Source: a virus. Taken from it: DNA of 64,000 nt. Positions 4,614 through 55,646 of the stretch are shown piece after piece. The stretch's first letter is position 1. Each line of letters opens with the position of its first letter. Position numbers and translations under genes: made by a program. Below the pieces are notes generated by a model. It did no database searches. It was not told the DNA's origin and was given only the letters and a program-made list of their open reading frames with translations. The stretch spans positions 40,428 through 104,427 of IMG/VR virus record IMGVR_UViG_3300029911_000010. One strand, 5' to 3'.

Positions 4614-5552
4614 TCAGACAAAGTCCGCACGGGCCAGCCCTGACGTGAAGCCAATCGTGCCGCCCATGGTCTCATAGGCGAAAAATTCCAACATAAAGGC
4701 TTCGCGCCTAATGTACATAGTCGTGTCTTCAAGCACATAGGACTTGCCGATGAACTTGGGATCACTGAACATGTACATCGTGTTGGTCGGGACCAGACCC
4801 TTCTTGATCGTGATCACCCAGGTCTTGCCCATGAACTCCTGGAGCGTCCAGCCGTTCTTCATGATGTCCTGAGACAGGTCGCCACCCATCTCGTTGCGGC
4901 CGAACTTGCACACATCCTTGATCGTGATGTGGTTGATGAGGATCGTGTGGACCTCCAGCGAGCTGGGGGTGTTGGGCATGATCTTCATCGCATCTTCCAG
5001 CGTATCGCGGGTGATGCCACCGGCAATCACTTCGTACTGGACGACGCCGCTGGTCGGGACAACCAGGCCGGGGCCGACGATCGCGGTGTTGATGGCGCGG
5101 ATGAATTTAGAATCTTCCTCTGCCAACATGTCCTTGATCGCGTTATCACTGAGCACCTGGCGGATGTCCATGATCCAGGTCCGCAGCTCGTCCACGTCTT
5201 TGGTGAAACGGGGCGTGACGATACGGTCGAACATGACGCGGTAGCGGGGACCGCGAATGTACAGGTTCTGCGGCAAGGTCGCGAACGCGATGCTGATGGC
5301 AGCAGGCGAATTCGGTTCCTTGTCGACCACCTTGACCGGCTTGTCGGTGTCGACCTGGCGGTCCAGCTCATCGTTGCCGATGGGCGTGGCCGGCAGGATG
5401 CGGCGGTAAAAGCCGTCTTCACGCATCTTCGTACGCGTGAAGTCGTTGATGGAATCTTCGGCCTGTTTGATCAGGCCGTTATCACGAGAGCCAAGCTGCT
5501 GAAAAAGCGTTTGATTCAGCAGCTTAGTTTCTTCGGGGGAGAGCTGAACCAT
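4614..5552 (-). CDS. Major capsid protein (HK97 fold)
   Basis: 312 aa; DELRTWIMDIRQVLSDNAIKDMLAEED resembles the strand plus spine-helix pattern; strongly biased codons; order protease-scaffold-decoration-capsid. Confidence 0.8.
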   Translation of the reverse strand: MVQLSPEETKLLNQTLFQQLGSRDNGLIKQAEDSINDFTRTKMREDGFYRRILPATPIGNDELDRQVDTDKPVKVVDKEPNSPAAISIAFATLPQNLYIRGPRYRVMFDRIVTPRFTKDVDELRTWIMDIRQVLSDNAIKDMLAEEDSKFIRAINTAIVGPGLVVPTSGVVQYEVIAGGITRDTLEDAMKIMPNTPSSLEVHTILINHITIKDVCKFGRNEMGGDLSQDIMKNGWTLQEFMGKTWVITIKKGLVPTNTMYMFSDPKFIGKSYVLEDTTMYIRREAFMLEFFAYETMGGTIGFTSGLARADFV

Positions 5553-5557
5553 TTTTA

Positions 5558-5600
5558 GATCCTCCGTGATCAGTTAAAAGTCACCGCCATCCTTGGCGGC
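5558..5600 (-). promoter_or_regulatory. Two CsrA-type hairpins in the capsid leader
   Basis: GCCGCC-AAGGAU-GGCGGU (5583-5600) and GAUC-ACGGAG-GAUC over the SD (5558-5571). Confidence 0.7.
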
Positions 5601-5621
5601 ATGAAACACTCTGCCATCAGC

Positions 5622-6164
5622 TTAGGCGCTGGGGGGCAGATACACAGGCCAGAAGGCAACCGCCTCATAGCCATAACCGTTGTCGACCAATCCACGCGAC
5701 ACAACGCCGCAGATCGTGTTCGTGCCGAGCGTGCCCGGCGTGAGCATACCTGCCAGCACCGCACCGCTGTTGACCAGGGGGCTGGTCAGGTGGGTGTTGG
5801 GCGGGTAGGTCTGGGTGTCGTCGTAGTTGGTCGAAACCAACTCGTAGGCACCGACCGCGACCAGGAACATCAGCACGCCGGTCGGATTGATGGCAATGAA
5901 GACGTCCTTGGTGGTCGCAGCATCACCGCCGTCATTCTGCACGTCGGGGTCATCCGACGCCTGGAAATTGAACAGCGGCATGACCGGACTGTTACCCACG
6001 CCCAAGACCGCGTAGCCATTGGCATTCAGGGAGCAGCAAGCCCCCGGCGGCACACGAGTCTGGACGGACGGATCGAACTTGCCCTCGAAATCGAGAGCAT
6101 TGGGACGCGGCCAGCCCTTGAGGGGGTTGAGCGTCTGGGAAGTCATTTGACGAGGAGCAGCCAT
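5622..6164 (-). CDS. Capsid decoration/cement-like protein
   Basis: Start re-called at ATG 6164 (leader nearly identical to the capsid leader); beta-rich 180 aa immediately upstream of the capsid gene. Confidence 0.6.
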   Translation of the reverse strand: MAAPRQMTSQTLNPLKGWPRPNALDFEGKFDPSVQTRVPPGACCSLNANGYAVLGVGNSPVMPLFNFQASDDPDVQNDGGDAATTKDVFIAINPTGVLMFLVAVGAYELVSTNYDDTQTYPPNTHLTSPLVNSGAVLAGMLTPGTLGTNTICGVVSRGLVDNGYGYEAVAFWPVYLPPSA

Positions 6165-6699: not shown

Positions 6700-6735
6700 T
6701 GTGACAGCCTCCATGCTGCTTGTTGGGTTGATTTC

Positions 6736-9604: not shown

Positions 9605-11014
9605 CTATTGATGCTGACGGGCGGCGTGCAGCTTGTCCAGTATAGCCTGGGCTTCGGGATGTTCCTGCATGTACTGTTGATGTGACGCCAAAGTGGCATT
9701 GCGCTGTTGTACGTACGGATCGTAGCCTTTACCTAATAGCAACGGACCTGCCAGCGTCGCCGCAATCTGCGCTCCCGTACCGCCTCCACGACTCCACAGA
9801 CTGGGTTTCGCAAGACCACGGCCAGCTGATAAAACACCAGGCAGAGCTTCACCGTGAATACCGAGCGGCAGCTCGGCATTAACGTTTGCCATAATATCAG
9901 TCGGGAACGGGCTCTTGGGGTCGGCGGCCAAACGTTGCACGGTATTCAGAATGCCGGCTGACTGAGGCGTCGGCGCAGCCGGACCGGTAGCCATGTGGTC
10001 GTTGAACAGCCGGTGAAAAGCGTCTGCTCGGGTGGCGTAGTCTGGCATGTTCGATCCCGAACCAACGCCGCCTTGCTGTTCGTGATCATACAGATCACGG
10101 AGAAACTGCGTAGCACTGGCGACGTGGTTGGCCCGCGTCTGCCCAGTCGAGTTGGCCAGCATCGTTGATTTGGACATATCGCCCAGCCCGTGCGATGCAG
10201 CTGTGTCTTGCAGCAATTTGGTCTGCTCTGGCGTGAATTTAGAGTAGTCGCTCACCGGTGAGCTGGGATTCATGGCCCGAATTGCCGCAAGCTGCACGTT
10301 ACGACCGCCATCTACGAGCGTCTTATAAACGGCAGGCGGTACTTTGCCTTCAATACCTTTCATGAACGCGTCGGTGTTGACCATTGAGTCTATGCCGCCT
10401 CTTAGCCCCAGCCAGTCAACACCCTTATGCAAGTTGTTCATGGCCGCGTTGTAGGCCGGGCGACCGACTAGATTCCAGCTGGCAAGACCGCCGATACCTA
10501 AACCCACGTTAGATCCGGCGTTGCTGATCATGTCGTTAAGACCACGCGGAAAATCAGTCATTAGCTTGACGGCGTTGGAGTGCCCTTGCCAGGCTGCGTC
10601 CTGTTGTGCGTTGTTGAGTTCCTGGGCTTGCTGCAAATTCTTCGTGGCTGAACCATCCGGCGGGTTCATGTAATTGCCCAGCTGCTTCAAGCCGTAATGC
10701 AGACCGCCGCCGATGGCACCGCCGGCCAAAGCTCCGGTCAAGGCGCTGCGCCACGGATGCTTTTCGCGTCCGGGCTCGTCGTTCATGTAGTCGCTGGCCA
10801 TGCCAATGCCGCCGCCGATGCCGGCACCCGCCAGACCAGCCAGCAGTGAATCGCCACCGACAGCGTACGGATTTGCCGGTGCTGCCGGTGCTGCCGGTGC
10901 TGCCGCACCGGTCTTTTTCAGGCCGGCCTTTTTAACCATCCGGACGGCGCAGGCTCGCTTGGCCAGAATGTCGCTGGCTTCCTTGACGGTCATGTTTTTT
11001 AAGTCAAGCGGCAT
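9605..11014 (-). CDS. Glycine-zipper putative internal virion/ejection protein
   Basis: GLAGAGIGGGIG and GALAGGAIGGGL; N-terminal KEAS, KRAC, KKAG, KTG. Confidence 0.55.
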   Translation of the reverse strand: MPLDLKNMTVKEASDILAKRACAVRMVKKAGLKKTGAAAPAAPAAPANPYAVGGDSLLAGLAGAGIGGGIGMASDYMNDEPGREKHPWRSALTGALAGGAIGGGLHYGLKQLGNYMNPPDGSATKNLQQAQELNNAQQDAAWQGHSNAVKLMTDFPRGLNDMISNAGSNVGLGIGGLASWNLVGRPAYNAAMNNLHKGVDWLGLRGGIDSMVNTDAFMKGIEGKVPPAVYKTLVDGGRNVQLAAIRAMNPSSPVSDYSKFTPEQTKLLQDTAASHGLGDMSKSTMLANSTGQTRANHVASATQFLRDLYDHEQQGGVGSGSNMPDYATRADAFHRLFNDHMATGPAAPTPQSAGILNTVQRLAADPKSPFPTDIMANVNAELPLGIHGEALPGVLSAGRGLAKPSLWSRGGGTGAQIAATLAGPLLLGKGYDPYVQQRNATLASHQQYMQEHPEAQAILDKLHAARQHQ

Positions 11015-13855: not shown

Positions 13856-14464
13856 TTAAGCTCCGGTACCGATACTTTCATGTGAGCGCACGGCGATGCG
13901 GTACGTGCCGGTTGCGGCCAGCTTGACGTACAGTTTACGGTTTACGCCGATGTTGCGGTTGGGCAGAGCGTCCTGATTTTTGAATGTGATATCCAAATTG
14001 GCGTGCAGCGGGCTCGCACCGGTGATGGTTGCAAACACCCGGTACAGTTCCTGCTCAGCCGAAGGAATCTGTACTTGGGCAGTGCCGCCAACCGCGTCGG
14101 CCGTCCACGACTGGTCAGTGACGATGTTAAAGTCATCCACGACTTCCAACACCCGATGGCTGGTGTTGTAGCCGGACGTGGGGCTGCTGGCCACGACAAC
14201 CACATCGCCTACCTTACAAGCCAGGGCGCTGTTGGGATTCATTTCAACGTAGCAATAGCCGTTGCCGTCGTTGGTGATCAGGTACACCGGCACGGCCACC
14301 AGCGGCGACGCGAACGCCCGGCTAAACAAATCGGCGGTCACGGTTCCGCCGCCGATCAGAATGATCGTGATGTAGTCCAACGTGCAGCGGCCGGGGTAAG
14401 ACAAAGCCACGATCTGATTGGAGCCAACGGTGGTCACGGAAAATTCTTTTTCGTATGGCGTCAC
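13856..14464 (-). CDS. Beta-rich putative structural protein
   Basis: KVGDVVVVAS..GYN...RVLEVVD resembles small beta-barrel tail/decoration modules; GGAGG SD. Confidence 0.55.
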   Translation of the reverse strand: MTPYEKEFSVTTVGSNQIVALSYPGRCTLDYITIILIGGGTVTADLFSRAFASPLVAVPVYLITNDGNGYCYVEMNPNSALACKVGDVVVVASSPTSGYNTSHRVLEVVDDFNIVTDQSWTADAVGGTAQVQIPSAEQELYRVFATITGASPLHANLDITFKNQDALPNRNIGVNRKLYVKLAATGTYRIAVRSHESIGTGA

Positions 14465-14722
14465 TTGTGCTGGCCTCCGTGCCAGTGAAAGTAAAATGCG
14501 TCGGCAGCTTCGATAAGCGGGCCGCGAATTTCAGGGTGCAAATCCTTGAGTCGTTTAGACGACTTCTGACAGTTACAGGCTCGACACAACCGGACAGCGT
14601 TACCGGGTTTCAAGCCGTTTCCTCGCGATAACGGTCGAACGTGATCGGTACAGGTCGCGGTTGCTTTGACGTATGACGGTCAAACGGCTGTACCTATCGT
14701 TGAGCAGGTCTAGTGCTTGCAT
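14461..14722 (-). pseudogene. Internally deleted, frameshifted HNH homing endonuclease remnant
   Basis: Frame A gives MQALDLLNDRYSRLTVIRQ; a shifted frame gives DHVRPLSRGNGLKPGNAVRLCRACNCQKS through to a stop at 14461. Confidence 0.7.
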
Positions 14723-14724
14723 GA

Positions 14725-17451
14725 TCAGTCTCCAGATTCTTCCATATCTGGGTCTTGTATTTCGTCGAGTCGTGGCTCGATTGTCTTCTCCTTTAGGAAT
14801 AACACTATATCTGCGAGGCTTTCAAAGGCATTTCGCAGCGAATCTTCCATCTCCGGCAAAGAATTTTTGCCATACCGCTCCTTGAAATCATCTTGATGCC
14901 AGTAAAAAAGGAAGAGCAACCGGCCCAGCTTGTCGACGGCTTTCATCAGGTCAGGCAAGTGGCGGTCCACCAGCGAGTCCTGCCGCACCGACTTGAGCAT
15001 GCCGGAGATCATCGAAGTGTCGAACACCTCTTTCTGCCCTTCCTGGCCGGCTTGCTGGGCAGTCTGCACCGCCTTCTGGTCGGGCATCAGGAATGGATCA
15101 TAGATCCGAGGATCAGTCTGCGAGCTGTCCAACCCCGACACCGGCACATGCTCGCTCTGGGGATAGATGGCGTTGACTGAATTGTAGCCGACCTGTTCAC
15201 TACCGTACTCGGGAGCCGGCATGACTGGGGCGTAGGGGCCACCGGACTGCAGATCGCCGCTGGGATAGTAGCCTGCGGTCTTTTCTCGCGGATAGCTCTT
15301 GGCGTATACGACGCGGTACTGCACCGGCGATCCGCTCATGCCGTTGCTGTGAACCTGGGCTTGCTTGAGCATCGCGGCTGCTTCGCTTTCGCCGAGCCCG
15401 TGATCGCGAATCAGACAGAACAGACCATGCCGCCACGGCATGCGCTCGCAGCCTCGCTTGATGGTCTGAATGGACACTTCGCTGTGATCGCCCCACATCT
15501 TCATGGACGCGGTCTTGGTGGTGAACAGCAGTTGAATGTCACCGATGTCGCCGGGGACGATCGGCTTGGGGTCTGAGCCGTCTGAGTCCCAACCAACCGG
15601 GCCGCCGATACTGCTCTTGCTGGGACCGTCGCCGTCGTCTTTCTTGGGCTTGGGCGGATCTTTGAGCTTCATGAACTTGAAAGTATCGGGCACGTGCAAC
15701 GTGCCGGCAGCCGCCCGCAACTTGGTGCCGGGGCGGTCGTTGATCACTAGCAAAGCATCGTAGTTGCTGACATAGCCGCCGTCGCCGGAATAGGACGAAG
15801 GCTCAGTCACCTTGGGCAAACCGCTGGCACGCCCGGCTTTCCAGTCCTCGTAGCCCTTGAAGTCGACCTTGTAACGCTTGTCCTCGTAAACCTTGCTGAC
15901 AACAAACGGGACAGTGCCCTCTCCGGCCTGGTTGATCGCCAGGTAGGTGCCGCCCTTGGACAACGTCTCGGAGTTGCCCAGACCTTTGAACCATTCGCGG
16001 AAATCGTTCTCCGACTCGATTGTTTTGGTCCACAACGACGTGCGGTGACCGTTAAGCCACGACTTCTCGCCGTCGCCCAATCGCACCACCGTACAAAAGT
16101 TCTTTTGCCCGTCGTTGGCACTGGGGGCCTGGACCACCAGCATGCGGCCGAATTCGCCGGGCTTCTCCAGCACTTCGTAGATGCCGGTCTCGTGCGGATT
16201 TGTCAGTTCCGTTCGCACTTGAGTGTTGTACGCATGGCTGATTTCGTCGCCCTTGCGCTCGTCCTTGACCAGATAGCCGTGGTGCAGGAGCTTTTCTTTA
16301 TCCTTCTCGGGAAGTTCCTTGTTGACCGTGAGGCTGACATCCGGGTCAGTGAGAATCTTGACCTTGGGCTTCTTGTCATCTTCGGGCGGCTGGGCTTCCT
16401 TAAGCAGCGAAAAATCCAGTTCACTTCGCGGCTTGTTCGGCGCAATGCGGGTTTCCCACTCGGCTCCTTTGATCAGGCAGTTGGCGGCTTCCTCGGCTGC
16501 CTGCTTGATTCGCAGGCCGACGCGATGGAAGAAATCGCTGCCATAGAACTTATCGAAGGCGACCTTGATGCCGGGGTAGCGCTGGGAGATGTTGTAGGCT
16601 CCTTCCAGCAGGCTGACATCGGTCGCCAGGAAGTCTTCCAGCGACAGTGGGACGTCGGCTAAGGCCGCCTTGACGGGGCTGGCGGGCAGCTTGCTGACGT
16701 CAACTTTGCGATCGGCCGGGGCGTTGGGCCATAGGAAGTTGGCTTGCTTGGTGGCAATGGCCGCCAGCAACGGCAGCGCCGGCACCGCCCAACCGGCCAC
16801 GTCGCGATTGCCGACGCGGATGTAATCCGGCAGCGGTGATTCCGCAGACCGACCTTCGCGGGCGGCAGCAGCTTTGGCCTGTAGTCGCTCCAGAGCACTG
16901 CCGTATTTGTTGTGCGGCGGCGGATAGCTGAGACGTTCGATGTTGGGGGCAATGCCGCCCAGCTGCCAGGTATCCTTGGCCGAGCCTTCGCCCAGGACGT
17001 GCGGCTTGCGGCTGAGGATGTAGTTGACCCAGTTTTCCTTCATGGGCACGAAGGAGTCCTGATTCTTGATATACAAAAGCTCGTGGCCCTTGAGATCACC
17101 GTTGAGGAAGAAGATCGGGGCGTACAGCCACTGCTTGCCGATCTTGAAGCCGAACACGCCGACAGCCTTGGTGTTGTCGTCGTTGCGGTCGACCAGCTGG
17201 AAGCCGACGATGTAGTCGATCAGGCGGGGAGCCTTATCCTTGAGATAGGCATACCCAAGTGAAGAGAAGGATTGCTCAAAGCCCTGCTCCTGCTCGCCGC
17301 CGATGCTCGCCCATTTGATGCCGGGACCCTTGGCCAGTCCGCGAATGTGCATGACCAGCTGCAGCGGTGTCGCGTCGCTGGTGTAAAATTGACCGGCATC
17401 CGTAGCGTGCTTGATGAACGTAATGTGCTTCCGTGCAGTTGTAATTGCCAT
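14725..17451 (-). CDS. Large putative virion protein
   Basis: 908 aa with K-x-A motifs (KHAT, KWAS, KQAN, KAAL, KQAA, KGAE, KEAQ, KTAS, KTAG). Confidence 0.65.
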   Translation of the reverse strand: MAITTARKHITFIKHATDAGQFYTSDATPLQLVMHIRGLAKGPGIKWASIGGEQEQGFEQSFSSLGYAYLKDKAPRLIDYIVGFQLVDRNDDNTKAVGVFGFKIGKQWLYAPIFFLNGDLKGHELLYIKNQDSFVPMKENWVNYILSRKPHVLGEGSAKDTWQLGGIAPNIERLSYPPPHNKYGSALERLQAKAAAAREGRSAESPLPDYIRVGNRDVAGWAVPALPLLAAIATKQANFLWPNAPADRKVDVSKLPASPVKAALADVPLSLEDFLATDVSLLEGAYNISQRYPGIKVAFDKFYGSDFFHRVGLRIKQAAEEAANCLIKGAEWETRIAPNKPRSELDFSLLKEAQPPEDDKKPKVKILTDPDVSLTVNKELPEKDKEKLLHHGYLVKDERKGDEISHAYNTQVRTELTNPHETGIYEVLEKPGEFGRMLVVQAPSANDGQKNFCTVVRLGDGEKSWLNGHRTSLWTKTIESENDFREWFKGLGNSETLSKGGTYLAINQAGEGTVPFVVSKVYEDKRYKVDFKGYEDWKAGRASGLPKVTEPSSYSGDGGYVSNYDALLVINDRPGTKLRAAAGTLHVPDTFKFMKLKDPPKPKKDDGDGPSKSSIGGPVGWDSDGSDPKPIVPGDIGDIQLLFTTKTASMKMWGDHSEVSIQTIKRGCERMPWRHGLFCLIRDHGLGESEAAAMLKQAQVHSNGMSGSPVQYRVVYAKSYPREKTAGYYPSGDLQSGGPYAPVMPAPEYGSEQVGYNSVNAIYPQSEHVPVSGLDSSQTDPRIYDPFLMPDQKAVQTAQQAGQEGQKEVFDTSMISGMLKSVRQDSLVDRHLPDLMKAVDKLGRLLFLFYWHQDDFKERYGKNSLPEMEDSLRNAFESLADIVLFLKEKTIEPRLDEIQDPDMEESGD

Positions 17452-17487
17452 TGCTTTCCGTCCGTGAAAAGGGCATCAGTTTATTTC

Positions 17488-33729: not shown

Positions 33730-34899
33730 CTATCCAAACAACCTGGGTAGAACGGCTTTTACGATACCGAGGTAAACCCCGGTTTGCTTCAAGACATCCT
33801 GTGCGGACTCGGGCATGCCGGTCAACAACCCAAGCGTATTGCCGACCAGTGCGCCAGAAACGTATCCAGCGCCCATGTGCGCAGCTAAATTCGCCATCTG
33901 TACTGGAGTAACCCAGCTTGATCCTTCTTCTCCGCTTCTGCCGCCAGGCATCTGCCGAGCCGCCATCAAAGCCCCCATCGTCGCCCCGGCCAGCTGTGGG
34001 CTGGCCCCGATATCCCACAAAGTCTGCCCCAGTGAGTTGATGTTCACGTCCATGGGCGTCGGTCCCGGACGCGTGGCTGCTTCCCAGGGCATTGTCAGCG
34101 TGTCAAACGCCTCCTTGATGTGCTGCGTCGGCCAGGTAGCCTGCAGGTACGCCGCCACTGCCTGCTTATGCCATTGTCCGGGCTCAGGCAAAAGATCAAT
34201 GTCGGATGCTGCTTTCCAGTTAATGTCAGGCGGGCCGCCTGGTGGAGCATACAACAGCGAATTGTCGTTTAGAGGCTTGCCGGCCGCATGGTTGGCTGCC
34301 ATCCAGGCACCACCGGGAACGGCTCCGGCCAGCCCGCCGACTGCCGCCAGCGTATTTTTCAAACGTCCGCGACGCCAACTGTCAGGCAGGCGGGATTCAA
34401 TCAGCGAGCCGGCACCGTAGCCCAGGCCAGCGCCGACCAGGCCGCTGGTGAGCATTGCCCGCACCGGGCTGGGGTTCATGCCGGTGAACTGCATCTTATC
34501 GGCATCGAAATGCGGGAAGAATCCCGCCCATTCGCCAGCAGTGCGCAGCGCCGGGCTGTAAGCAATCTTGACCCAGCCTTCATCTTCGAGCACCAGTCCG
34601 CTTTTCATCGTCGGCGACCAGACAAATCCCTCATCCGGCACGTCAGCTACGTCGGCCATGGCGGATTTGAGCAATGCAACGTCACGCGCCGGTGATTCAT
34701 CCGGCACATAGAAAGCCACCTTGTGTGTGTCCGGATGCAGGTAGATGCCGATCGGCATGGAAGTATAAACGCCGGAAATGGCACCGCGAATGCCGTCAGC
34801 TTCCGCCGCCAGCTTCTCAGCCGTCGCAATCGCGTCACGGCCGACGCGATACCACGCTGTCATTTGTTCCACGGTGAGAAGAGGTTGTTCGACCTCCAT
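33730..34899 (-). CDS. Glycine-zipper putative internal virion protein
   Basis: KLAA, KSAM, KIAY, KAAS, KQAV, KEAF; several GxxxG helices. Confidence 0.55.
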   Translation of the reverse strand: MEVEQPLLTVEQMTAWYRVGRDAIATAEKLAAEADGIRGAISGVYTSMPIGIYLHPDTHKVAFYVPDESPARDVALLKSAMADVADVPDEGFVWSPTMKSGLVLEDEGWVKIAYSPALRTAGEWAGFFPHFDADKMQFTGMNPSPVRAMLTSGLVGAGLGYGAGSLIESRLPDSWRRGRLKNTLAAVGGLAGAVPGGAWMAANHAAGKPLNDNSLLYAPPGGPPDINWKAASDIDLLPEPGQWHKQAVAAYLQATWPTQHIKEAFDTLTMPWEAATRPGPTPMDVNINSLGQTLWDIGASPQLAGATMGALMAARQMPGGRSGEEGSSWVTPVQMANLAAHMGAGYVSGALVGNTLGLLTGMPESAQDVLKQTGVYLGIVKAVLPRLFG

Positions 34900-34926
34900 G
34901 TCGTCTCCAGCTGTTCAGTTACGTGA

Positions 34927-38901: not shown

Positions 38902-41532
38902 TTAGATGTCCTCGTGGCGAGCTAAAAAAGAGGGGGCACGCAACGCCCCGCTGGCTAGTTGTTCCTGGGCACGAACGCGGGCGACACGGCCAATCCAGTC
39001 ATCTGGATTAGCTGCCATGTCAGCCAGAGTCGCGTCGTCAAAGCCAGTGCCGACCTTGCCGACCGGTTCACCACCAGGCTGCAAGCTGTACTGAAATCCG
39101 CCGACCGTGCTGGCCCGCCGGCCTTCGCCAGGGAAAAAACTGTGAATGTGAACATCGTGGTCCTCGGTCAGCTTGCTCTTCATCGGCTTGCCGTGCGTCG
39201 GATGGATCACCACACCTTCACGGGTCAGGGGATTCTTGCCACCGGCGATGTCCTGCCACATCTGCATCGCCTTGCCCGGCTCAGCCTCCTGGCTCAGGTG
39301 GAATCGCCCCGGAGCTGCTGCTTCAAGAAGCGGCAGAATCTCGCCCAGCATAGCACGACGCTCAGCGTAAGACGTTTGATCAAAGTCAACCGGATGCTTC
39401 CCGACTTGCTGGACGTCAAAGAGGGCGTTTCGCAGTTGTATTTTCCGATCTCTTTGCTGGGCAATGGCATTCGCGGGAGTGGCATTGAGGATGCCACCGA
39501 GTTCGGACGGGTGTATGGCTGTTTGCACAGTGTCGGATAGTAATGGGTCTCCCGGATTATCTGCCCCAGCTTCTCCGCCACCGGGCTTGTCGCCTTGTCT
39601 AACGCCGTAAAGTTCACCCCTGAGGACTGATCCAACCAGATTCGGCGGGGTTTGTATTGCTGGTCTGCCATGAAAGAACCTCTCCGTGTGTAAAATGGGC
39701 CGGCCTGTCTGCTTGCTCTGTCGGTAACTGGTCAGCTCCACGCCATCCTTGAGCAACTTGATCAAACTAGAAGCCCCGTCAATCTTAGCCTGCACGCTGG
39801 CAGCCGGATCTAACTTGGACAACGTCTGCTCGATCTGGTCGGCGGGGATCTTGGTGTAGTGAATCTTCTGATACGGCAGTGACTGCGACGGCGTGGTGTT
39901 GATCATCAGCCAATCACGGTCACGCTGGCCGTGCCACTTGGTCAGCATGAAGCGCTCGGGGTGCTTCTTGTCCATCCGCGTGAAGTGAATCTCACCGGGG
40001 GACACCTTGGTCAACATGATCTGGCCGCTGTCGTGTTTCTTAACAGAGCCGCCGCCGTAGCGCCCCAGGGGAATGTCGCCCTCGAAGTCCTTGTAGCCGT
40101 AGCGATGCACGGGCTGCTGCACCGCCAGGATGCGCTGGCCCGGCTCTGGAAGCTCATTGCGGGTCGCCCACGAGTACAAGCCGGTATCCGGGGTGCCGAA
40201 GCGAAAGTCGTAATGCGGGCCAGCCTTCTGCGCCAGGTGATGCTGGATAACCAAGTCGTGGTTCTGACCCGGCTGCAAGGCGTCCCAGTCGCCAAAGTTC
40301 TGCCGGCTGGGCAGGCCGGGAGCGGCGTCGGCTTTCTTCTCGTGCTTTTCTTCGTCGTCCGGCTCGTCTTCCTCCAGCTTGACGTCAGCCTCACGTCGCA
40401 TGATATCCGGCACGGGCGTCTTGGCCGGTACGTAGGGCTTGAATCCCAGCGACGTGTAGAACGCTGCTAACTCTGACGTGCCCAGCGCCTTGTCTTTGTA
40501 CGGGCCGACGTGCAGCTCCAGCGGCTTGTGGCCGTAGGCGTCCAGAACGTGTTCCATCAGCTTGCGAGCCAGTCCCTTTTCACGATGACGCGGCGAAACG
40601 TACAAACCCCTGATCCATCCGGCGTCGTGGCCGGGGACGTCCATTACAGCGACACCGCCGATCTCCCGTCCGTTGCGGGTGATGTCAAACCGGTGCTCGG
40701 GTCCGTGCTGAGCGAAGTTGTCCCGGTAGTCTCCGAAGCGATATTCTTCCGCAAAAGTTGATTTGCTTTTGTCAGCAGCCACTTTCTGGTTTCCGGCGTC
40801 GGCGAAATCTTCAAGGTCGAAAAGATCTGATCCGCCATCGGTTCCAGCTGGTCCACACTGCCTGCCATATCCGCTATCACCTGAGGGATGTACATCTGCA
40901 GCCTTCTTCCTGTATTTGGCGAACATGCCGTCTTCGATTTCACGCGTCGTGTCGGCGTGCTCCAGCCACCATTTGAACTGCGGCATCGTCAGTGAGTAGA
41001 TCGAACCCAGCCCCTTCCAGCCGTCCTCGTAGTTCTCCAAGTACAACCGGCGGGCCTGGTCCTCGTTGATAGCGCCGAAGATAACCTTGTGCTCGTCGAA
41101 GTCTTTGGTGCCGGGGTCAACCTGGTTGACGACGAACACCAGCTCGCAATGCGGGTGCTGATCGCCGATGAACACGTCGACATGATCCTTGTCCCGCCCC
41201 TCAGTGCCCAGGATGTAGCCATAGTGGCTTTTCATCTCCTGAGACCATTCCTTGCCGTCTCGGCTCTTGCCGCTGCGGGTGGAGCCCTTGGGATTTTCAA
41301 TGGAGATGGTCAGCCCGTGAATGTTGAGCTTGCCCTTGGCGTAGTTGCCCGCCTCACGCTGAGCTTCGGTAGGCTCGGTGTCAGTCTTGGCAGCGGCCCG
41401 GTCGATGCGATCCAGGTAATCCGCCAGCTCGCGATTGGCGTGCTGGGCCTGGTCCACCGTGGTATCGGGCACAACCGTTACGCGAATAATACGATGTGAA
41501 ACGCTCAGAATGCTGGTCGGCGAATCTTCCAT
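38902..41532 (-). CDS. Polyvalent protein: InPase-like + GNAT + LigD-type phosphoesterase + ATP-dependent DNA ligase
   Basis: GNY.KG...IENPKGS.R...YGYI..T.G.D.DHVDVFIG...DEHK; GLYVSPRHREKGLA; QHH.A...HYDFR..SWA..H..Y.FEG; KIDG, GELY, FDV, EGVV, GKVGTGF, LRAPSF. Confidence 0.85.
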   Translation of the reverse strand: MEDSPTSILSVSHRIIRVTVVPDTTVDQAQHANRELADYLDRIDRAAAKTDTEPTEAQREAGNYAKGKLNIHGLTISIENPKGSTRSGKSRDGKEWSQEMKSHYGYILGTEGRDKDHVDVFIGDQHPHCELVFVVNQVDPGTKDFDEHKVIFGAINEDQARRLYLENYEDGWKGLGSIYSLTMPQFKWWLEHADTTREIEDGMFAKYRKKAADVHPSGDSGYGRQCGPAGTDGGSDLFDLEDFADAGNQKVAADKSKSTFAEEYRFGDYRDNFAQHGPEHRFDITRNGREIGGVAVMDVPGHDAGWIRGLYVSPRHREKGLARKLMEHVLDAYGHKPLELHVGPYKDKALGTSELAAFYTSLGFKPYVPAKTPVPDIMRREADVKLEEDEPDDEEKHEKKADAAPGLPSRQNFGDWDALQPGQNHDLVIQHHLAQKAGPHYDFRFGTPDTGLYSWATRNELPEPGQRILAVQQPVHRYGYKDFEGDIPLGRYGGGSVKKHDSGQIMLTKVSPGEIHFTRMDKKHPERFMLTKWHGQRDRDWLMINTTPSQSLPYQKIHYTKIPADQIEQTLSKLDPAASVQAKIDGASSLIKLLKDGVELTSYRQSKQTGRPILHTERFFHGRPAIQTPPNLVGSVLRGELYGVRQGDKPGGGEAGADNPGDPLLSDTVQTAIHPSELGGILNATPANAIAQQRDRKIQLRNALFDVQQVGKHPVDFDQTSYAERRAMLGEILPLLEAAAPGRFHLSQEAEPGKAMQMWQDIAGGKNPLTREGVVIHPTHGKPMKSKLTEDHDVHIHSFFPGEGRRASTVGGFQYSLQPGGEPVGKVGTGFDDATLADMAANPDDWIGRVARVRAQEQLASGALRAPSFLARHEDI

Positions 41533-41553
41533 GACTAAATCATCCAGCTCACC

Positions 41554-41581
41554 TTGACTTCACCTGTTCGGGTGATATCAT
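41554..41581 (+). promoter_or_regulatory. Sigma70-like promoter of csrA with palindromic operator in the spacer
   Basis: TTGACT-TCACCTGTTCGGGTGA-TATCAT (TGn extended -10). Confidence 0.65.
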
Positions 41582-41626
41582 ACTGACCGTTCATCGAAGT
41601 CAAACCTCTATCGAAAGGAGTCGATC

Positions 41627-42055
41627 ATGCTAGTTCTCAGTCGCAAGCGTGACCAGGCCGTCCGAATCGGAAAAGACATTCGCGTCATGGTCACCGACAT
41701 TCGCGGTGACAAAGTTCGTATCGGTACGAACGCTCCACCGTGCTACAGAGTGTACCGCAAAGAGATCTACGATGGAATCCTCAGGGAAATCGCAGCCGGC
41801 GGCAGCCCTCCGGAAGAGCGGATCAAGTCCGGCGCTGGCCAATTGGTGCTAAGCCGCCAGCGTGACGAAAAGCTGTACGTCATCGATCCGGCCGACTGGA
41901 ATAAGCCCCTGGTCAGCATCACGGTAGTGGATATTCGCGGCGATAAGATACGTCTCGGCTTTGAGGCAGACAGATCGCTTGACGTGGACCGCGAGGAGGT
42001 CTATAAGTTGAAATCAGCCGGAGCCGATGCGAAAGCAGGCCAAACGGCGGTCTGA
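41627..42055 (+). CDS. csrA: Tandem two-domain CsrA/RsmA translational regulator
   Basis: MLVLSRK...IG.DI.V.V..IRGDKVRIG..AP....V.R.EI, then a second QLVLSRQ...ITVVDIRGDKIRLGFEA.....V.REEV; AAGGAG SD. Confidence 0.92.
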   Translation: MLVLSRKRDQAVRIGKDIRVMVTDIRGDKVRIGTNAPPCYRVYRKEIYDGILREIAAGGSPPEERIKSGAGQLVLSRQRDEKLYVIDPADWNKPLVSITVVDIRGDKIRLGFEADRSLDVDREEVYKLKSAGADAKAGQTAV

Positions 42056-42080
42056 GTCATTTGTACTACTCCAAGCAGAT

Positions 42081-42115
42081 CACCCTGGCGCTTACAACGC
42101 CAGGGTGGTTTGTTT
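42081..42115 (+). terminator. Intrinsic terminator after csrA
   Basis: CACCCTGGCG-CTTACAA-CGCCAGGGTG followed by GTTTGTTT. Confidence 0.75.
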
Positions 42116-42205
42116 ATGTAGACAGCTGCACAACCGTAAAGCCTCTGTCAATCCATTCTCCTTCGAGTCTTTCAAGGGGCTGAAATGGTGAAAAATCCCC
42201 GCCGG

Positions 42206-42757
42206 TCATGCAGCCGTCGTATCCTTGGCTGTATCCGTACGCCCCAGCACGCCCCTCTTCCTTATCGCAACTGTCACATGAAAATCGTATTTCCCCTCGT
42301 TAGGCAAACTGCTTAAGCCGTAGCTGCGCCGCAACTCCTGCAACTCCGGTGAATGCACCCGCAGTATCCAGCACTTAGCCACATCAGGCCAGCCAGCCGG
42401 CTCCAGCTCCATTAGACGGCCGATGGTGTAGGTGAACGTCTTGCCGCGATCGTTGAGCAGCTTGTCAGTCCCGCCGATGATGGAGATATCCTCGGGGCGG
42501 AACACAGTGATGTGGGCGTCCAGCTTGCCTTCGTGCAGCGGCAGCTCGATGCCGGTTTCGTCCATGGCATCAAAGATGCCGCGAACCATGGCATTGGGCA
42601 CCGACAGCAGGCCGTAGGGCTTATCGCGGTGCTGGGCGACGTACAACCGGCCTGACAGGTTGTAGGCCGGCACCTGGTCATTGGCAATCTTCTCGCCCAG
42701 GCGGTACGCCTGGTTGTGCCAGTAACTGAAATTGTCGATGGGGCTCAGAACGCTCAT
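42206..42757 (-). CDS. 2H phosphoesterase family protein
   Basis: Two HxT motifs, AHITVF and FHVTVA. Confidence 0.8.
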   Translation of the reverse strand: MSVLSPIDNFSYWHNQAYRLGEKIANDQVPAYNLSGRLYVAQHRDKPYGLLSVPNAMVRGIFDAMDETGIELPLHEGKLDAHITVFRPEDISIIGGTDKLLNDRGKTFTYTIGRLMELEPAGWPDVAKCWILRVHSPELQELRRSYGLSSLPNEGKYDFHVTVAIRKRGVLGRTDTAKDTTAA

Positions 42758-42961: not shown

Positions 42962-43351
42962 TCACTTCTGATCCATCGATAAGCGAGGATCGGGTCTGTC
43001 AGCCGACTGAACCTGACGAACCATGCGCTGACGAGTTTGCTGCACGTCAGGATTGCCGGCAATGGCAACCAGCTGGGCCGCTACCTCCGGGGGCAGCATC
43101 TGGTTAGCCATGTTGACCATGTTGGTGTTGTGTTCCTGCATGGCGGCTTGCAGCTGCTCGATGGACTTGCCGTGAGCATCGACCACGGGATTACCCCGTA
43201 TCGCCTGGATGACCATGACAGCCACCTGACCGATGATCCATATCAAGATGGCGACGTTGGAAAGCGACCACTCACTGCCGCCAGTAGACGGAGGCAGCTG
43301 GCCGAGAACGACGAAGTATCCGAGGGGAATAAGAGAAAGAAGGAAAGCCAT
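42962..43351 (-). CDS. Membrane protein
   Basis: Two N-terminal hydrophobic segments then a coiled region; AAGGAG SD. Confidence 0.55.
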   Translation of the reverse strand: MAFLLSLIPLGYFVVLGQLPPSTGGSEWSLSNVAILIWIIGQVAVMVIQAIRGNPVVDAHGKSIEQLQAAMQEHNTNMVNMANQMLPPEVAAQLVAIAGNPDVQQTRQRMVRQVQSADRPDPRLSMDQK

Positions 43352-43398
43352 GGTCACTCCTTTGACCCAACCTCAGTTTGTACCCTGTCTTAGATTGC

Positions 43399-48698: not shown

Positions 48699-49067
48699 TC
48701 AGGCCATCGGGATGCTGATCGGCGGAATCAGGGCTCCGCCGCCGGGGATCAATACGTTGGCGGCGAACTTCAAGGCAAAGTTGAGAATCACCGGGACGAC
48801 TGCCGCGAAGATAGCGTCGGCGTTGGCGGCAATCCGCAGCCGGTTGGCTTCCAGCAGCGCCAAAGCTTGATCATTAACCTGGTCGAGCGTGTCCTGGTCA
48901 CCGGCAGCGCCGGCGTCGATAGCAATGCCGACGATGTTCAAGGCGTAGGTCTGCAGATCACTTTCGGCACCCTGGATGATCGGAGCCAAAGCCTCAGACA
49001 ACGTCTGGGCGGTGATGGTCTTGAGATCGGTAATTCCGGCTGGGGTGATACGATAAAGCTGCATCAT
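48699..49067 (-). CDS. Helical protein with hydrophobic C-terminus
   Basis: Start re-called at MMQLY; follows the lipoprotein gene. Confidence 0.5.
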   Translation of the reverse strand: MMQLYRITPAGITDLKTITAQTLSEALAPIIQGAESDLQTYALNIVGIAIDAGAAGDQDTLDQVNDQALALLEANRLRIAANADAIFAAVVPVILNFALKFAANVLIPGGGALIPPISIPMA

Positions 49068-49104
49068 GGATTTTGCCCGCAGAAGAACCCACAGAAGAAC
49101 ACAG

Positions 49105-49509
49105 TTAGTTGGTCGCCGGCTTGGCTCCGCCAGCGGTGAGCACTTCACGTAGGATCTTGGTGTCGTTGAGGTTGGCTTGCAGCTTATAAGACGGCAGCTT
49201 GGCGTTGGCGTGGTCGTAAACGTCGGTGCGATTGCACACGTCGTTGAGCGGCGCTGAAATAGTGCTGGCCTGCACCGTGGGGTTGACCAGCTCACTGCGG
49301 ACAAAGGACGACTGGCCCAGGTCGTGCGTCCGAGTAGCCATGTCCAGCGTAGTATCGGCGTTGATGTAGGCGTCGTGACGGTTCAGCACGCGGGTGGTAG
49401 TGCCGGAGATCTTGGTGGTGTCGATCTGGGTGCTCAAGACCGAGCAGCCGGCCAGCAAGCCGATACAGAGCAGTTGAAGTACGCGAAACGATGACTTGGC
49501 ATGACGCAT
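49105..49509 (-). CDS. Lipoprotein
   Basis: Signal peptide with lipobox LLAG|C; AAGGAG SD. Confidence 0.7.
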   Translation of the reverse strand: MRHAKSSFRVLQLLCIGLLAGCSVLSTQIDTTKISGTTTRVLNRHDAYINADTTLDMATRTHDLGQSSFVRSELVNPTVQASTISAPLNDVCNRTDVYDHANAKLPSYKLQANLNDTKILREVLTAGGAKPATN

Positions 49510-49725: not shown

Positions 49726-50445
49726 TCACTTGAGCACCGGGGTTTGTCTGCCGTCCATAATGTACCGGCGGCACCATTTGACCACGGCCGAGCGATGCTG
49801 CCCGTGAGCCTTGAACCTCGTGCTGATTGCCTGGGGATTGCCCCGGTCTTCGTTGGAGTACGCCAGCTTGTAGGTCCGGTTCAGCCGACCGCTTTCGGCC
49901 ATCGCCGTGTAAGACAGGACGATGTCTTCGCCGTTGCCCGTGGGCACGCCGGGCAGCTCGCGGATGTGCTTGGTGCCCCAGGCCACCGCACGGCCGCACA
50001 GCCACGGGCTGGTGATCAGAGCACGAGTCAGGACGATCTCACACGGGCCAACCACCAGATGGGGCGTGTAGTTGCCGTCCAGCGTCGGCTGGCGTCCAAT
50101 CAAGCCGTGAATCGTCAGCGGATCTTTCTTGTGATAATCGTGCAGCGCGTCAATGGTTGAAGCCGGCAACAGCAGGTCGTCGTCGACGATCATCACCGAG
50201 TTGCCTTCGGCGGCAGCGCCCATCATGTAGCGGGGGTACAGGCCAAAATCGTGATGAGACCTGACGTAATGCACCTTGTCCTTCAAGTCGTCGAACACGC
50301 CTGGCGGCAAAGGGCTGGCAACGCTGGCGTCCCAGACGATGATCTCGCCGATGTTGTGGCAGCCGTGATACTGCTTGACAAAACGGATCACGTTGGCGGA
50401 TCTGGCCCAGTTCATGATCACCACGGAAATGCGGTCTGTTCTCAC
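49726..50445 (-). CDS. Glycosyltransferase, GT64/exostosin-like GT-A fold
   Basis: SVVIMNWAR, EIIVWD, IVDDDLL, NGEDIVLS; GTG start after AGGAG. Confidence 0.7.
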   Translation of the reverse strand: MRTDRISVVIMNWARSANVIRFVKQYHGCHNIGEIIVWDASVASPLPPGVFDDLKDKVHYVRSHHDFGLYPRYMMGAAAEGNSVMIVDDDLLLPASTIDALHDYHKKDPLTIHGLIGRQPTLDGNYTPHLVVGPCEIVLTRALITSPWLCGRAVAWGTKHIRELPGVPTGNGEDIVLSYTAMAESGRLNRTYKLAYSNEDRGNPQAISTRFKAHGQHRSAVVKWCRRYIMDGRQTPVLK

Positions 50446-54641: not shown

Positions 54642-55083
54642 TCACAGGACACGACACGGCGATTTGACTCGGTAGTTGATTATCGCCGGTCCGACGTATT
54701 ACTGCTTGCGCATGCAACCCGAACTTCGGAATGGTCATAGCACTCAGTTTTACTTCGACGGGAAACGTATGCCCCTTGCGGTGTCGTCCGCGCAACGGAA
54801 GACCACTGCCCATTTCACGCACACGCGGCTCGTTCATGTAGCCGTCACGCAAAAGCGGATGACGCTTTTTAACGTCGTCGGGAATGAGAATCTCAATCTT
54901 CTCGCCGATAACTTCCGAGCGGGCATAACCGAACAAAAATTCGGCCTGGGCATTGAACACGACGATTTGTCCGTCGTCAGCGATGACCACAATGGCGTCG
55001 GCGCTGGCCTCCAATGCCTTAAGGTAAATCTGTTCGAGCGCTTCGACGGAATAGTACAGCTTGTTTCTTTGTTCATTGTCCAT
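54616..55083 (-). CDS. Stand-alone PAS domain protein (FixL-like)
   Basis: DAIVVI..DGQIVVFNAQAEFLFGY...EVIG.KIEILIP....RH.....Y...RKGHTFPVEV. Confidence 0.85.
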   Translation of the reverse strand: MDNEQRNKLYYSVEALEQIYLKALEASADAIVVIADDGQIVVFNAQAEFLFGYARSEVIGEKIEILIPDDVKKRHPLLRDGYMNEPRVREMGSGLPLRGRHRKGHTFPVEVKLSAMTIPKFGLHAQAVIRRTGDNQLPSQIAVSCPVIVEKPSGE

Positions 55084-55555
55084 ATGCCGCCTCTTGTCCG
55101 TGTGCAGCCTCAGCGTGACCTTCCGAAGCCACGGCGATGGCGGCTTCGATACATGATCCGGCTATCAACCCGTAAGGCACGCAAACGTTCTCCAGAATCC
55201 ACGGACCGAAACGATGGTCTATCTCAAGAAACAATTCTTTGTTAGTAAAACTATGTCCAACCGTCCGGTAGAACTCACGCAGCTCATCGGCCTTGTCGCG
55301 GTACCACTGTTTCACTTCTTCGGTCAGTTGTAACGGTGACTCGTACTTACCCATGTGTCGCTGTAACACTTCGCTCTGGGCACGGCGCATCATGTAGTCC
55401 AGCATTTTATCGATTCGCTTATCGTGCTGGTGGACTAACGTCTCCAACACTCCGAACTTAGCCGCTTGCCGTACTAGAAACAATATAACGAGTACGAATC
55501 CAGCGAAAACCGAACCAGCCATACCGATAATTGTCAGACCGACTTCTATCGTCAT
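55073..55555 (-). CDS. Single-TM membrane protein
   Basis: N-terminal TM helix; start at ATG 55555 after AAGGAG. Confidence 0.6.
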   Translation of the reverse strand: MTIEVGLTIIGMAGSVFAGFVLVILFLVRQAAKFGVLETLVHQHDKRIDKMLDYMMRRAQSEVLQRHMGKYESPLQLTEEVKQWYRDKADELREFYRTVGHSFTNKELFLEIDHRFGPWILENVCVPYGLIAGSCIEAAIAVASEGHAEAAHGQEAAYGQ

Positions 55556-55588
55556 TTCTGTACTCCTTTGCTTGCTGCTCGTCATTTT

Positions 55589-55646
55589 TGCTGCTCGTCC
55601 GTGAGCGGCACAGATCGATATTACTCCGCAGAAGGTTTATCGACCA
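55589..55646 (-). promoter_or_regulatory. Promoter plus CsrA-hairpin cassette, copy 2
   Basis: TGGTCG-17-TAATAT then GCUC-ACGGAC-GAGC; similar in sequence to copy 1. Confidence 0.55.

Follow-up and report, generated by a model that had tools for sequence, protein, structure and literature searches.

A single-chain tandem CsrA in a large phage and candidate GGA-loop hairpin targets on the phage's own mRNAs

Descriptions of CsrA, a textbook example of a global regulator, have always shown a symmetric homodimer. The window considered here, the whole 64,000-nucleotide stretch of viral DNA that was analysed, encodes a natural single-chain form, which indicates that this symmetry can be broken and raises the question of why a phage would carry such a protein and which RNAs it would read. 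What csrA does in phages has received hardly any study. A catalogue of phage and plasmid csrA genes exists (Sobrero and Valverde 2020, PMC7366521), and knock-down of the phage csrA gene PTXU04_00028 led to smaller plaques (Adler et al. 2025, PMC11879866), a single phenotype from authors who describe the role of CsrA in phage life cycles as previously untested. In full-text literature searches, no paper turned up that describes CsrA as a tandem or single chain, or that connects a phage CsrA with hairpins or a regulon on phage virion genes. The answer that we consider most likely, and hold with moderate confidence, is a translational circuit internal to the phage and operated by the single-chain CsrA. 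Because conserved candidate targets accompany the gene, the idea that a phage CsrA controls translation of virion proteins is directly testable, and purified protein with a few synthetic leaders would suffice, though phage and host are uncultured. The protein also lends itself to dissecting the contribution of each RNA-binding face, since one face can be mutated with the other left intact.

Domain content and predicted fold of the tandem protein

The tandem csrA gene is an uninterrupted open reading frame on the plus strand (41627-42055, stop codon included) that encodes 142 aa. Pfam family PF02599 matches the protein twice (whole-protein E = 3e-32), and in a search of the record's DNA the two halves scored 69.4 bits (aa 1-51) and 45.7 bits (aa ~73-127), both above the curated cut-off of 27 bits. 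Domain 1 (aa 1-56; 41627-41794, plus strand) comprises strands beta1 to beta5 and a helix, and is joined by a linker (aa 57-69; 41795-41833, plus strand) to domain 2 (aa 70-139; 41834-42043, plus strand), which has an insertion of 8-9 residues between beta2 and beta3 that is common to the tandem proteins P0002, P0003, P0006 and P0008. Mutagenesis in E. coli has placed the RNA contacts of CsrA at L2, L4 and R6 of beta1 and at V42, R44 and I47 of beta5. The phage protein has beta1 MLVLSRKR and beta5 RVYRKEIY in domain 1, and beta1 QLVLSRQR and beta5 DVDREEVY in domain 2; L2, L4, R6, V42, R44, E46 and I/V47 are kept in both halves. His43 has been swapped for Tyr in domain 1 and for Asp in domain 2, and the two domains are 42% identical.

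An AlphaFold2 model, computed from a 30-sequence alignment, is a single compact body with a mean pLDDT of 91.5 and a pTM of 0.82. Confidence is lower in the linker (67 over residues 61-70), as it is at the C-terminal end, and domain 2 is modelled at pLDDT 92-96. DSSP assigns strands 2-5, 11-14, 18-26, 29-35 and 41-44 and helix 45-56 to domain 1, and this order of five strands plus a helix occurs twice in the model, with the 13-residue linker between. VIA-align fitted Pseudomonas aeruginosa RsmA (1vpz_A; 57 residues, its whole chain) to model residues 68-133 with an rmsd of 1.1 Å and also recovered 5dmb_D; both of these fit domain 2 only, and generic beta-sandwich folds align across model residues 1-128. 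A Foldseek search of the model against single PDB chains gave no significant match, its top rows being the RsmN/RsmF structures 4KJI and 4K59. This null result is expected, because CsrA chains are extended and swapped, and the fold comes about only when two of them interleave. The model supports packing of the two halves as an intramolecular pseudo-dimer resembling the CsrA dimer, although a monomer prediction is also compatible with chain-swapped oligomers. The preliminary description of this DNA had proposed two diverged, fused CsrA domains, each with L-x-LSR in beta1 and the arginine of V-x-R-x-E, which could give a pre-formed asymmetric dimer, and had called for structure prediction of an intramolecular dimer. 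The sequence part of that proposal is borne out by both domain scores, and the structural part agrees with the model, in which the halves form one confident body and domain 2 is predicted to take the CsrA fold.

Sequence and predicted fold place the protein in the CsrA/RsmA family. Each half belongs to the same family as the canonical CsrA, RsmA and RsmE homodimers (PF02599; 1Y00, 1VPZ, 2JPP, 1T3O, 5DMB), with the same order of strands and helix and the same RNA-contact residues in beta1 and beta5; the best solved relatives by sequence are the CsrAs of Geobacillus and B. subtilis. Whereas the canonical regulator consists of two identical chains of ~60-80 aa, here there is one chain with unequal halves, an architecture that departs from the textbook form. 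The linker, the insertion in domain 2, the double replacement of His43 and the location on a phage also set it apart. RsmN/RsmF (4KJI, 4K59) offers a precedent for changed chain architecture within the CsrA fold, but RsmN is still a homodimer in which a helix has moved inside the chain, whereas the tandem protein repeats the canonical topology twice. The single-domain CsrAs of mobile elements (PHROG 9500, PMC7366521, PTXU04_00028) share with it the carriage of csrA on such an element; as single domains they must dimerise, whereas the dimer of the tandem protein is predicted to be hard-wired.

The same architecture was found elsewhere when tandem CsrA was surveyed with HMMER over 1.84 billion cluster representatives (clusters at 50% identity), as the preliminary description had suggested for phages and hosts. 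Two CsrA domains were present in 73 of the best 150 hits, and thus in at least 73 clusters, some of them bacterial, so that on these sequences the architecture is rare but recurrent. Two tandem genes lie in plainly bacterial contexts, one beside gyrB and greA and the other beside cysS and yidC. In many tandem proteins the two halves of one protein are more alike than the same half compared across proteins, which indicates repeated duplication. Within the clade of the window protein (P0002, P0003, P0004, P0006) the halves are orthologous and old. In one bacterial contig two tandem-CsrA genes adjoin each other (L182:4740-5080 and 5418-5897), close to cysS, yidC and an amidase, so that four CsrA domains fall within ~1.2 kb.

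Lineage and transcription unit of the gene

The source record (G000; IMG/VR, 104,427 bp) has a CheckV completeness of 47% and encodes pieces of a multisubunit RNA polymerase, ribonucleotide reductase, a polyvalent protein and a major head protein. Its relative with a tandem csrA, G001, is a complete phage of 224,418 bp with terminal repeats. There the tandem gene is syntenic, ~50% identical, on the minority strand, between the same two flanking genes, and the sole CsrA of the phage. The capsid protein defines a lineage of at least 108 IMG/VR contigs, mostly of 150-235 kb, and csrA is carried by 23 of its 26 near-complete genomes. A CsrA domain was not detected in three complete phages of the lineage (G014, G044, G047). 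Apart from the tandem genes of G000 and G001 all of these csrA genes are single-domain, which makes the fusion a derived state of the G000/G001 branch; judged from this distribution, csrA is ancestral and single-domain in this lineage of ~200-kb phages. In close relatives the single-domain gene also lies, judging by the strands listed, on the strand opposite the capsid gene, and it shares the Shine-Dalgarno (SD) hairpin discussed below. The major capsid protein itself (4614-5552, minus strand) is 87% identical between G000 and G001, where most other shared proteins are 30-60% identical, and is 61-87% identical throughout the lineage.

A crude codon-usage gene call yielded 83 minus-strand and four plus-strand genes. 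The three plus-strand calls other than csrA are low-scoring or overlap minus-strand open reading frames, among them 48867-49139 and 49744-50160, which have homologues in G001. Tandem csrA is thus effectively the sole plus-strand gene of the 104-kb record. Its neighbours, both on the minus strand, encode an 876-aa polyvalent protein (38902-41532) with InPase, GNAT, LigD 3'-phosphoesterase and DNA ligase parts, and a 183-aa 2H phosphoesterase (42206-42757; PF22547). The setting resembles that in phage PTXU04, in which a few genes separate a csrA homologue from the gene of a polyvalent protein (PMC11879866).

Because both neighbours are encoded on the opposite strand, csrA forms a transcription unit of its own. 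A candidate sigma-70-like promoter, TTGACT-N16-(TG)TATCAT, lies upstream (41554-41581, plus strand) and scores 10/12; only five sites in the whole 104 kb, both strands included, score 10/12 or better. The matching place in G001 reads TTGTGT-N17-TAGTAT. Downstream, between the convergent csrA and 2H-phosphoesterase genes, a palindromic terminator hairpin (42073-42115; -36.2 kcal/mol, z = -8.1) is followed on the plus strand by a U-rich tail. The spacer of the csrA promoter contains an inverted repeat, TCACC-tgttcg-GGTGA (41562-41577, plus strand), and its counterpart in G001, CCCCC-gttc-GGGGG (L003 ~9900-9915), differs in sequence and keeps the pairing. The repeat could serve as an operator, or as a hairpin at the 5' end of the divergently transcribed polyvalent-protein mRNA.

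The SD sequence of csrA is presented in the hexaloop of a leader hairpin, atcga-AAGGAG-tcgat (41610-41625, plus strand), whose GGAG ends 6 nt ahead of the ATG, and which is a candidate autoregulatory CsrA site. Taken alone the hairpin is weak (-3.2 kcal/mol, no better than shuffled sequences), with an A-U rather than a C-G closing pair, and the leader contains a single GGA. The 22-nt block that holds it is identical in G001; across 42 orthologous upstream regions no identical block is longer (median 7 nt), and the second and third longest are GGA-loop hairpins too. In the viral contigs searched, the exact 20-nt leader is shared only by G001. Among single-domain csrA genes of the lineage, G002 has tcga-AAGGAG-tcga and G003 tgga-AAGGAG-tcca, the latter with a compensatory change. 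Several csrA genes of Planctomycetota likewise carry cagg-AAGGAG-cctg over the SD. Conservation of the hairpin in G001, G002 and G003, together with its likeness in Planctomycetota, makes autoregulation of csrA through this candidate site plausible. The features that had first drawn attention to the locus, namely a lone plus-strand gene with its own promoter and terminator and an SD within AUCGA-AAGGAG-UCGAU, have all held up at the level of sequence.

GGA-loop hairpins on phage mRNAs

CsrA and RsmE recognise hairpins with the consensus (A/U)CANGGANG(U/A), derived from RsmE bound to hcnA, and the candidate target hairpins of the phage match it. Hairpins were defined here as a hexaloop NNGGAN on a stem of at least 4 bp, a definition that undercounts variants. 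On the transcribed strand of G000, 34 of 437 loops beginning with A (7.8%) lie on such a stem, against 22 of 1313 others (1.7%; P = 8e-9). The corresponding numbers for G001 are 72/962 (7.5%) and 73/3456 (2.1%; P = 5e-14), and the background rate at any hexaloop position is 2.2%. A C-G pair closes the loop in 26 of the 34 hairpins in G000 and in 56 of the 72 in G001. Together, the enrichment of A-first loops and the C-G closing pair define the motif as C-ANGGAN-G. No enrichment was found on the opposite strands of G000 and G001, nor in 79 other csrA-bearing viral loci that were pooled.

Many of the hairpins sit at translation starts. By crude gene calls, 14 in G000 and 25 in G001 are no more than a few bases away from a start codon, with the GGA inside the SD, 5-11 nt ahead of the start. 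In addition, three leaders in G000 and eleven in G001 have paired hairpins 22-56 nt apart, the downstream one of which covers the SD. Among the genes concerned are the major capsid gene and several whose codon bias is strongest. The sets of the two phages overlap: among orthologous genes, seven have hairpins in both, none in G000 only, six in G001 only and 29 in neither (Fisher P = 6e-5), and the stems of orthologous hairpins in G000 and G001 are unlike. A cluster of three or more GGA hairpins, as a sponge RNA, was also sought, and only pairs were found. Presentation of the SD was considered as the whole explanation of the hairpins and was rejected as such, given the second hairpins 22-56 nt upstream, the specificity for A-first loops and the C-G closing pair. 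The SD contains GGA in any case, and the signal at start sites is in part not independent of ribosome binding.

The capsid gene provides the clearest example. It matches a PHROG family of major head proteins, and its two-hairpin leader (5558-5601, minus strand) consists of an upstream hairpin, tgccgcc-AAGGAT-ggcggtg (5582-5601), and a hairpin that overlies the SD, gatc-ACGGAG-gatc (5558-5571). The leader in G001 is built in the same way from cgcctc-AGGGAT-gaggcg and cgatc-ACGGAG-gatcg. Throughout the lineage the SD hairpin of the capsid gene is kept with at least six different stems (ggaac/gttcc, gcac/gtgc, gaagac/gtcttt, gatc/gatc, tttc/gaaa and others) around a constant CA(C/U)GGAGG. Further SD hairpins on the minus strand are ctggc-ACGGAG-gccag (14470-14485), ahead of the gene at 13856-14464, whose G001 orthologue has hairpins with different stems; cttttc-ACGGAC-ggaaag (17454-17471), ahead of 14725-17451, where the orthologue has ttcc-ACGGAT-ggaa; and gctc-ACGGAC-gagc (55593-55606), ahead of 55073-55585. 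The hairpin ggtca-AAGGAG-tgacc (43352-43367, minus strand) lies at the start of the gene at 42962-43357. PHROGs assigned no function to most of the hairpin-bearing genes, so that the term virion gene is secured for the capsid gene only.

On a few genes the loop is AUGGAG or AUGGAA and its AUG is the start codon (34890-34903, 6704-6719 and 41523-41536, all on the minus strand), so that a bound protein would cover the start codon and not the SD. The last of these, agtc-ATGGAA-gatt at the start of the polyvalent-protein gene, is weak, with a 4-bp stem that includes one G-U pair.

Proposed circuit and competing readings

The phage-internal circuit would operate as follows. Tandem duplication and fusion of the single-domain csrA of the lineage would have given a chain that folds on itself, its halves interleaving in the beta-sandwich known from the CsrA dimer. 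Such a protein would have two non-identical RNA-binding faces, each formed by beta1 of one half and beta5 of the other. Its likeliest targets are the C-ANGGAN-G hairpins over the ribosome-binding sites of phage genes, the major capsid gene included, and its own SD hairpin is probably a target as well. Bound to SD hairpins the protein would block the ribosome, leading to repression of phage genes and to autoregulation. The gene is probably expressed early and independently of main-strand transcription, since it stands alone on the opposite strand behind a host-type promoter; in G001, main-strand transcription would run antisense through it. RNA binding, repression as the direction of regulation, and the timing are what we infer from fold, hairpins and gene layout.

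A more specific version of the circuit is possible, but is put forward tentatively. The fusion would be an insulated, asymmetric reader of two-part leaders within a single molecule, with one face tuned to the loops of SD hairpins, which end in G (ACGGAG or AAGGAG), and the other to the loops of upstream hairpins, which end in U or C (ACGGAU, AAGGAU, AAGGAC). It would be closed to subunit exchange with host CsrA and to silencing by FliW. In combination with its own SD site and the lone antisense position of its gene, it would act as a self-contained viral timer, holding back the synthesis of virion proteins until late mRNAs outnumber the protein.

The alternative that ranks second, though it is rather unlikely, is that the tandem CsrA acts mainly on host mRNAs, those of flagellin and the host CsrA regulon, so that host translation is shut off or rewired by a protein immune to FliW, and that the hairpins on phage mRNAs are read by host CsrA. 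The host group is likely to be Planctomycetota, the source of the nearest single-domain CsrAs among the matches listed. In these bacteria the gene order is fliW-csrA-flagellin, the flagellin SD lies in caatc-ANGGAG-gattg and a similar hairpin occurs on fliW. The phage hairpin is thus also the hairpin of flagellin, fliW and csrA in the likely host group, as a take-over of host mRNAs would have it, and mobile-element CsrAs have indeed been proposed to manipulate their hosts (PMC7366521, PMC11879866). The arrangement recalls the Hag-FliW-CsrA switch of flagellated bacteria, known in B. subtilis and matched by the fliW-csrA-flagellin gene order of Planctomycetota, in which, as in the phage, an SD hairpin with a GGA loop is accompanied by a second site upstream. 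It differs in that the phages have no FliW (none was found in G000 or G001) and in that the candidate targets are virion genes, not flagellin.

A further difference from that switch lies in the protein itself and bears on the same alternative. Asn55 is reported to be invariant in CsrAs partnered with FliW and to be required for FliW binding (bioRxiv 10.1101/2020.07.02.184341). Domain 1 has Ile at this position and domain 2 has Ala, so that the FliW-docking Asn is lost from both halves. It is present in 56 of 81 Planctomycetota CsrAs, in 7 of 82 viral single-domain CsrAs and, for the tandem proteins with both halves considered, in 5 of 92. With Asn55 missing, and with a polyvalent protein and a 2H phosphoesterase as neighbours, the phage protein falls outside the FliW-antagonised subfamily. 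Because both halves are without Asn55, host FliW is probably unable to switch the protein off; the loss speaks for take-over of host mRNAs and for the circuit alike. The suggestion in the preliminary description that the protein could evade its antagonists receives indirect support from the lost residue; escape from FliW is a probable consequence that we infer from this one position.

Which CsrA reads the hairpins may be judged from their distribution in the lineage. They are densest in the two phages with the tandem gene, G000 and G001, and their enrichment is absent from two complete relatives in which csrA was not detected (G014, G047), a pattern that speaks against host CsrA as their only reader. 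Among phages with a single-domain csrA, enrichment is strong in G041, modest in G023 and absent under the strict hairpin definition in G045. The third complete phage in which csrA was not detected, G044, shows weak enrichment and keeps the capsid SD hairpin gcac-ACGGAG-gtgc, as would be expected if host CsrA reads it. With this imperfect co-occurrence (G045, G044), the link between hairpin density and the phage's own csrA is a suggestive, not a tight one, and host CsrA may read the sites as well. Action on host mRNAs would by itself leave more than 30 conserved sites on phage mRNAs unexplained, and the candidate site in the phage's own csrA leader also points to targets within the phage; the two roles are, moreover, compatible with one another.

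CsrA can activate or stabilise some of its targets. This property opens a third reading, which we consider improbable, in which the tandem protein recognises the same hairpins as a positive or protective factor, stabilising the mRNA or displacing host CsrA, with more translation of virion proteins as the outcome. The presence of hairpins on the most codon-biased genes, presumably those most highly expressed, would suit such a factor, and the change of His43 in both halves could alter binding. The position of GGA within the SD, 5-11 nt ahead of the start codon, is nevertheless the classical geometry of ribosome occlusion, and argues for repression as assumed in the phage-internal circuit. Finally, an assembly or annotation artefact, or a decaying duplicate with an inert second domain, is highly improbable: domain 2 does score lower, has an insertion and carries Asp for His43, but the frame is unbroken, a syntenic gene in a complete phage keeps both domains at ~50% identity, the two-domain architecture recurs in at least 73 clusters, and domain 2 is modelled with high confidence.

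One further RNA element adjoins csrA. Rfam family CyVA-1 (RF02965) gives a full-length match at 42131-42208 on the minus strand, with 47 bits against a gathering score of 41.4; a corresponding match is absent from G001. The match extends from the 2H-phosphoesterase stop codon to shortly before the shared terminator. Its large loop, GAAGGAGAAUGGAU, contains two A-N-GGA motifs, and the element could be a CsrA-binding 3' UTR RNA.
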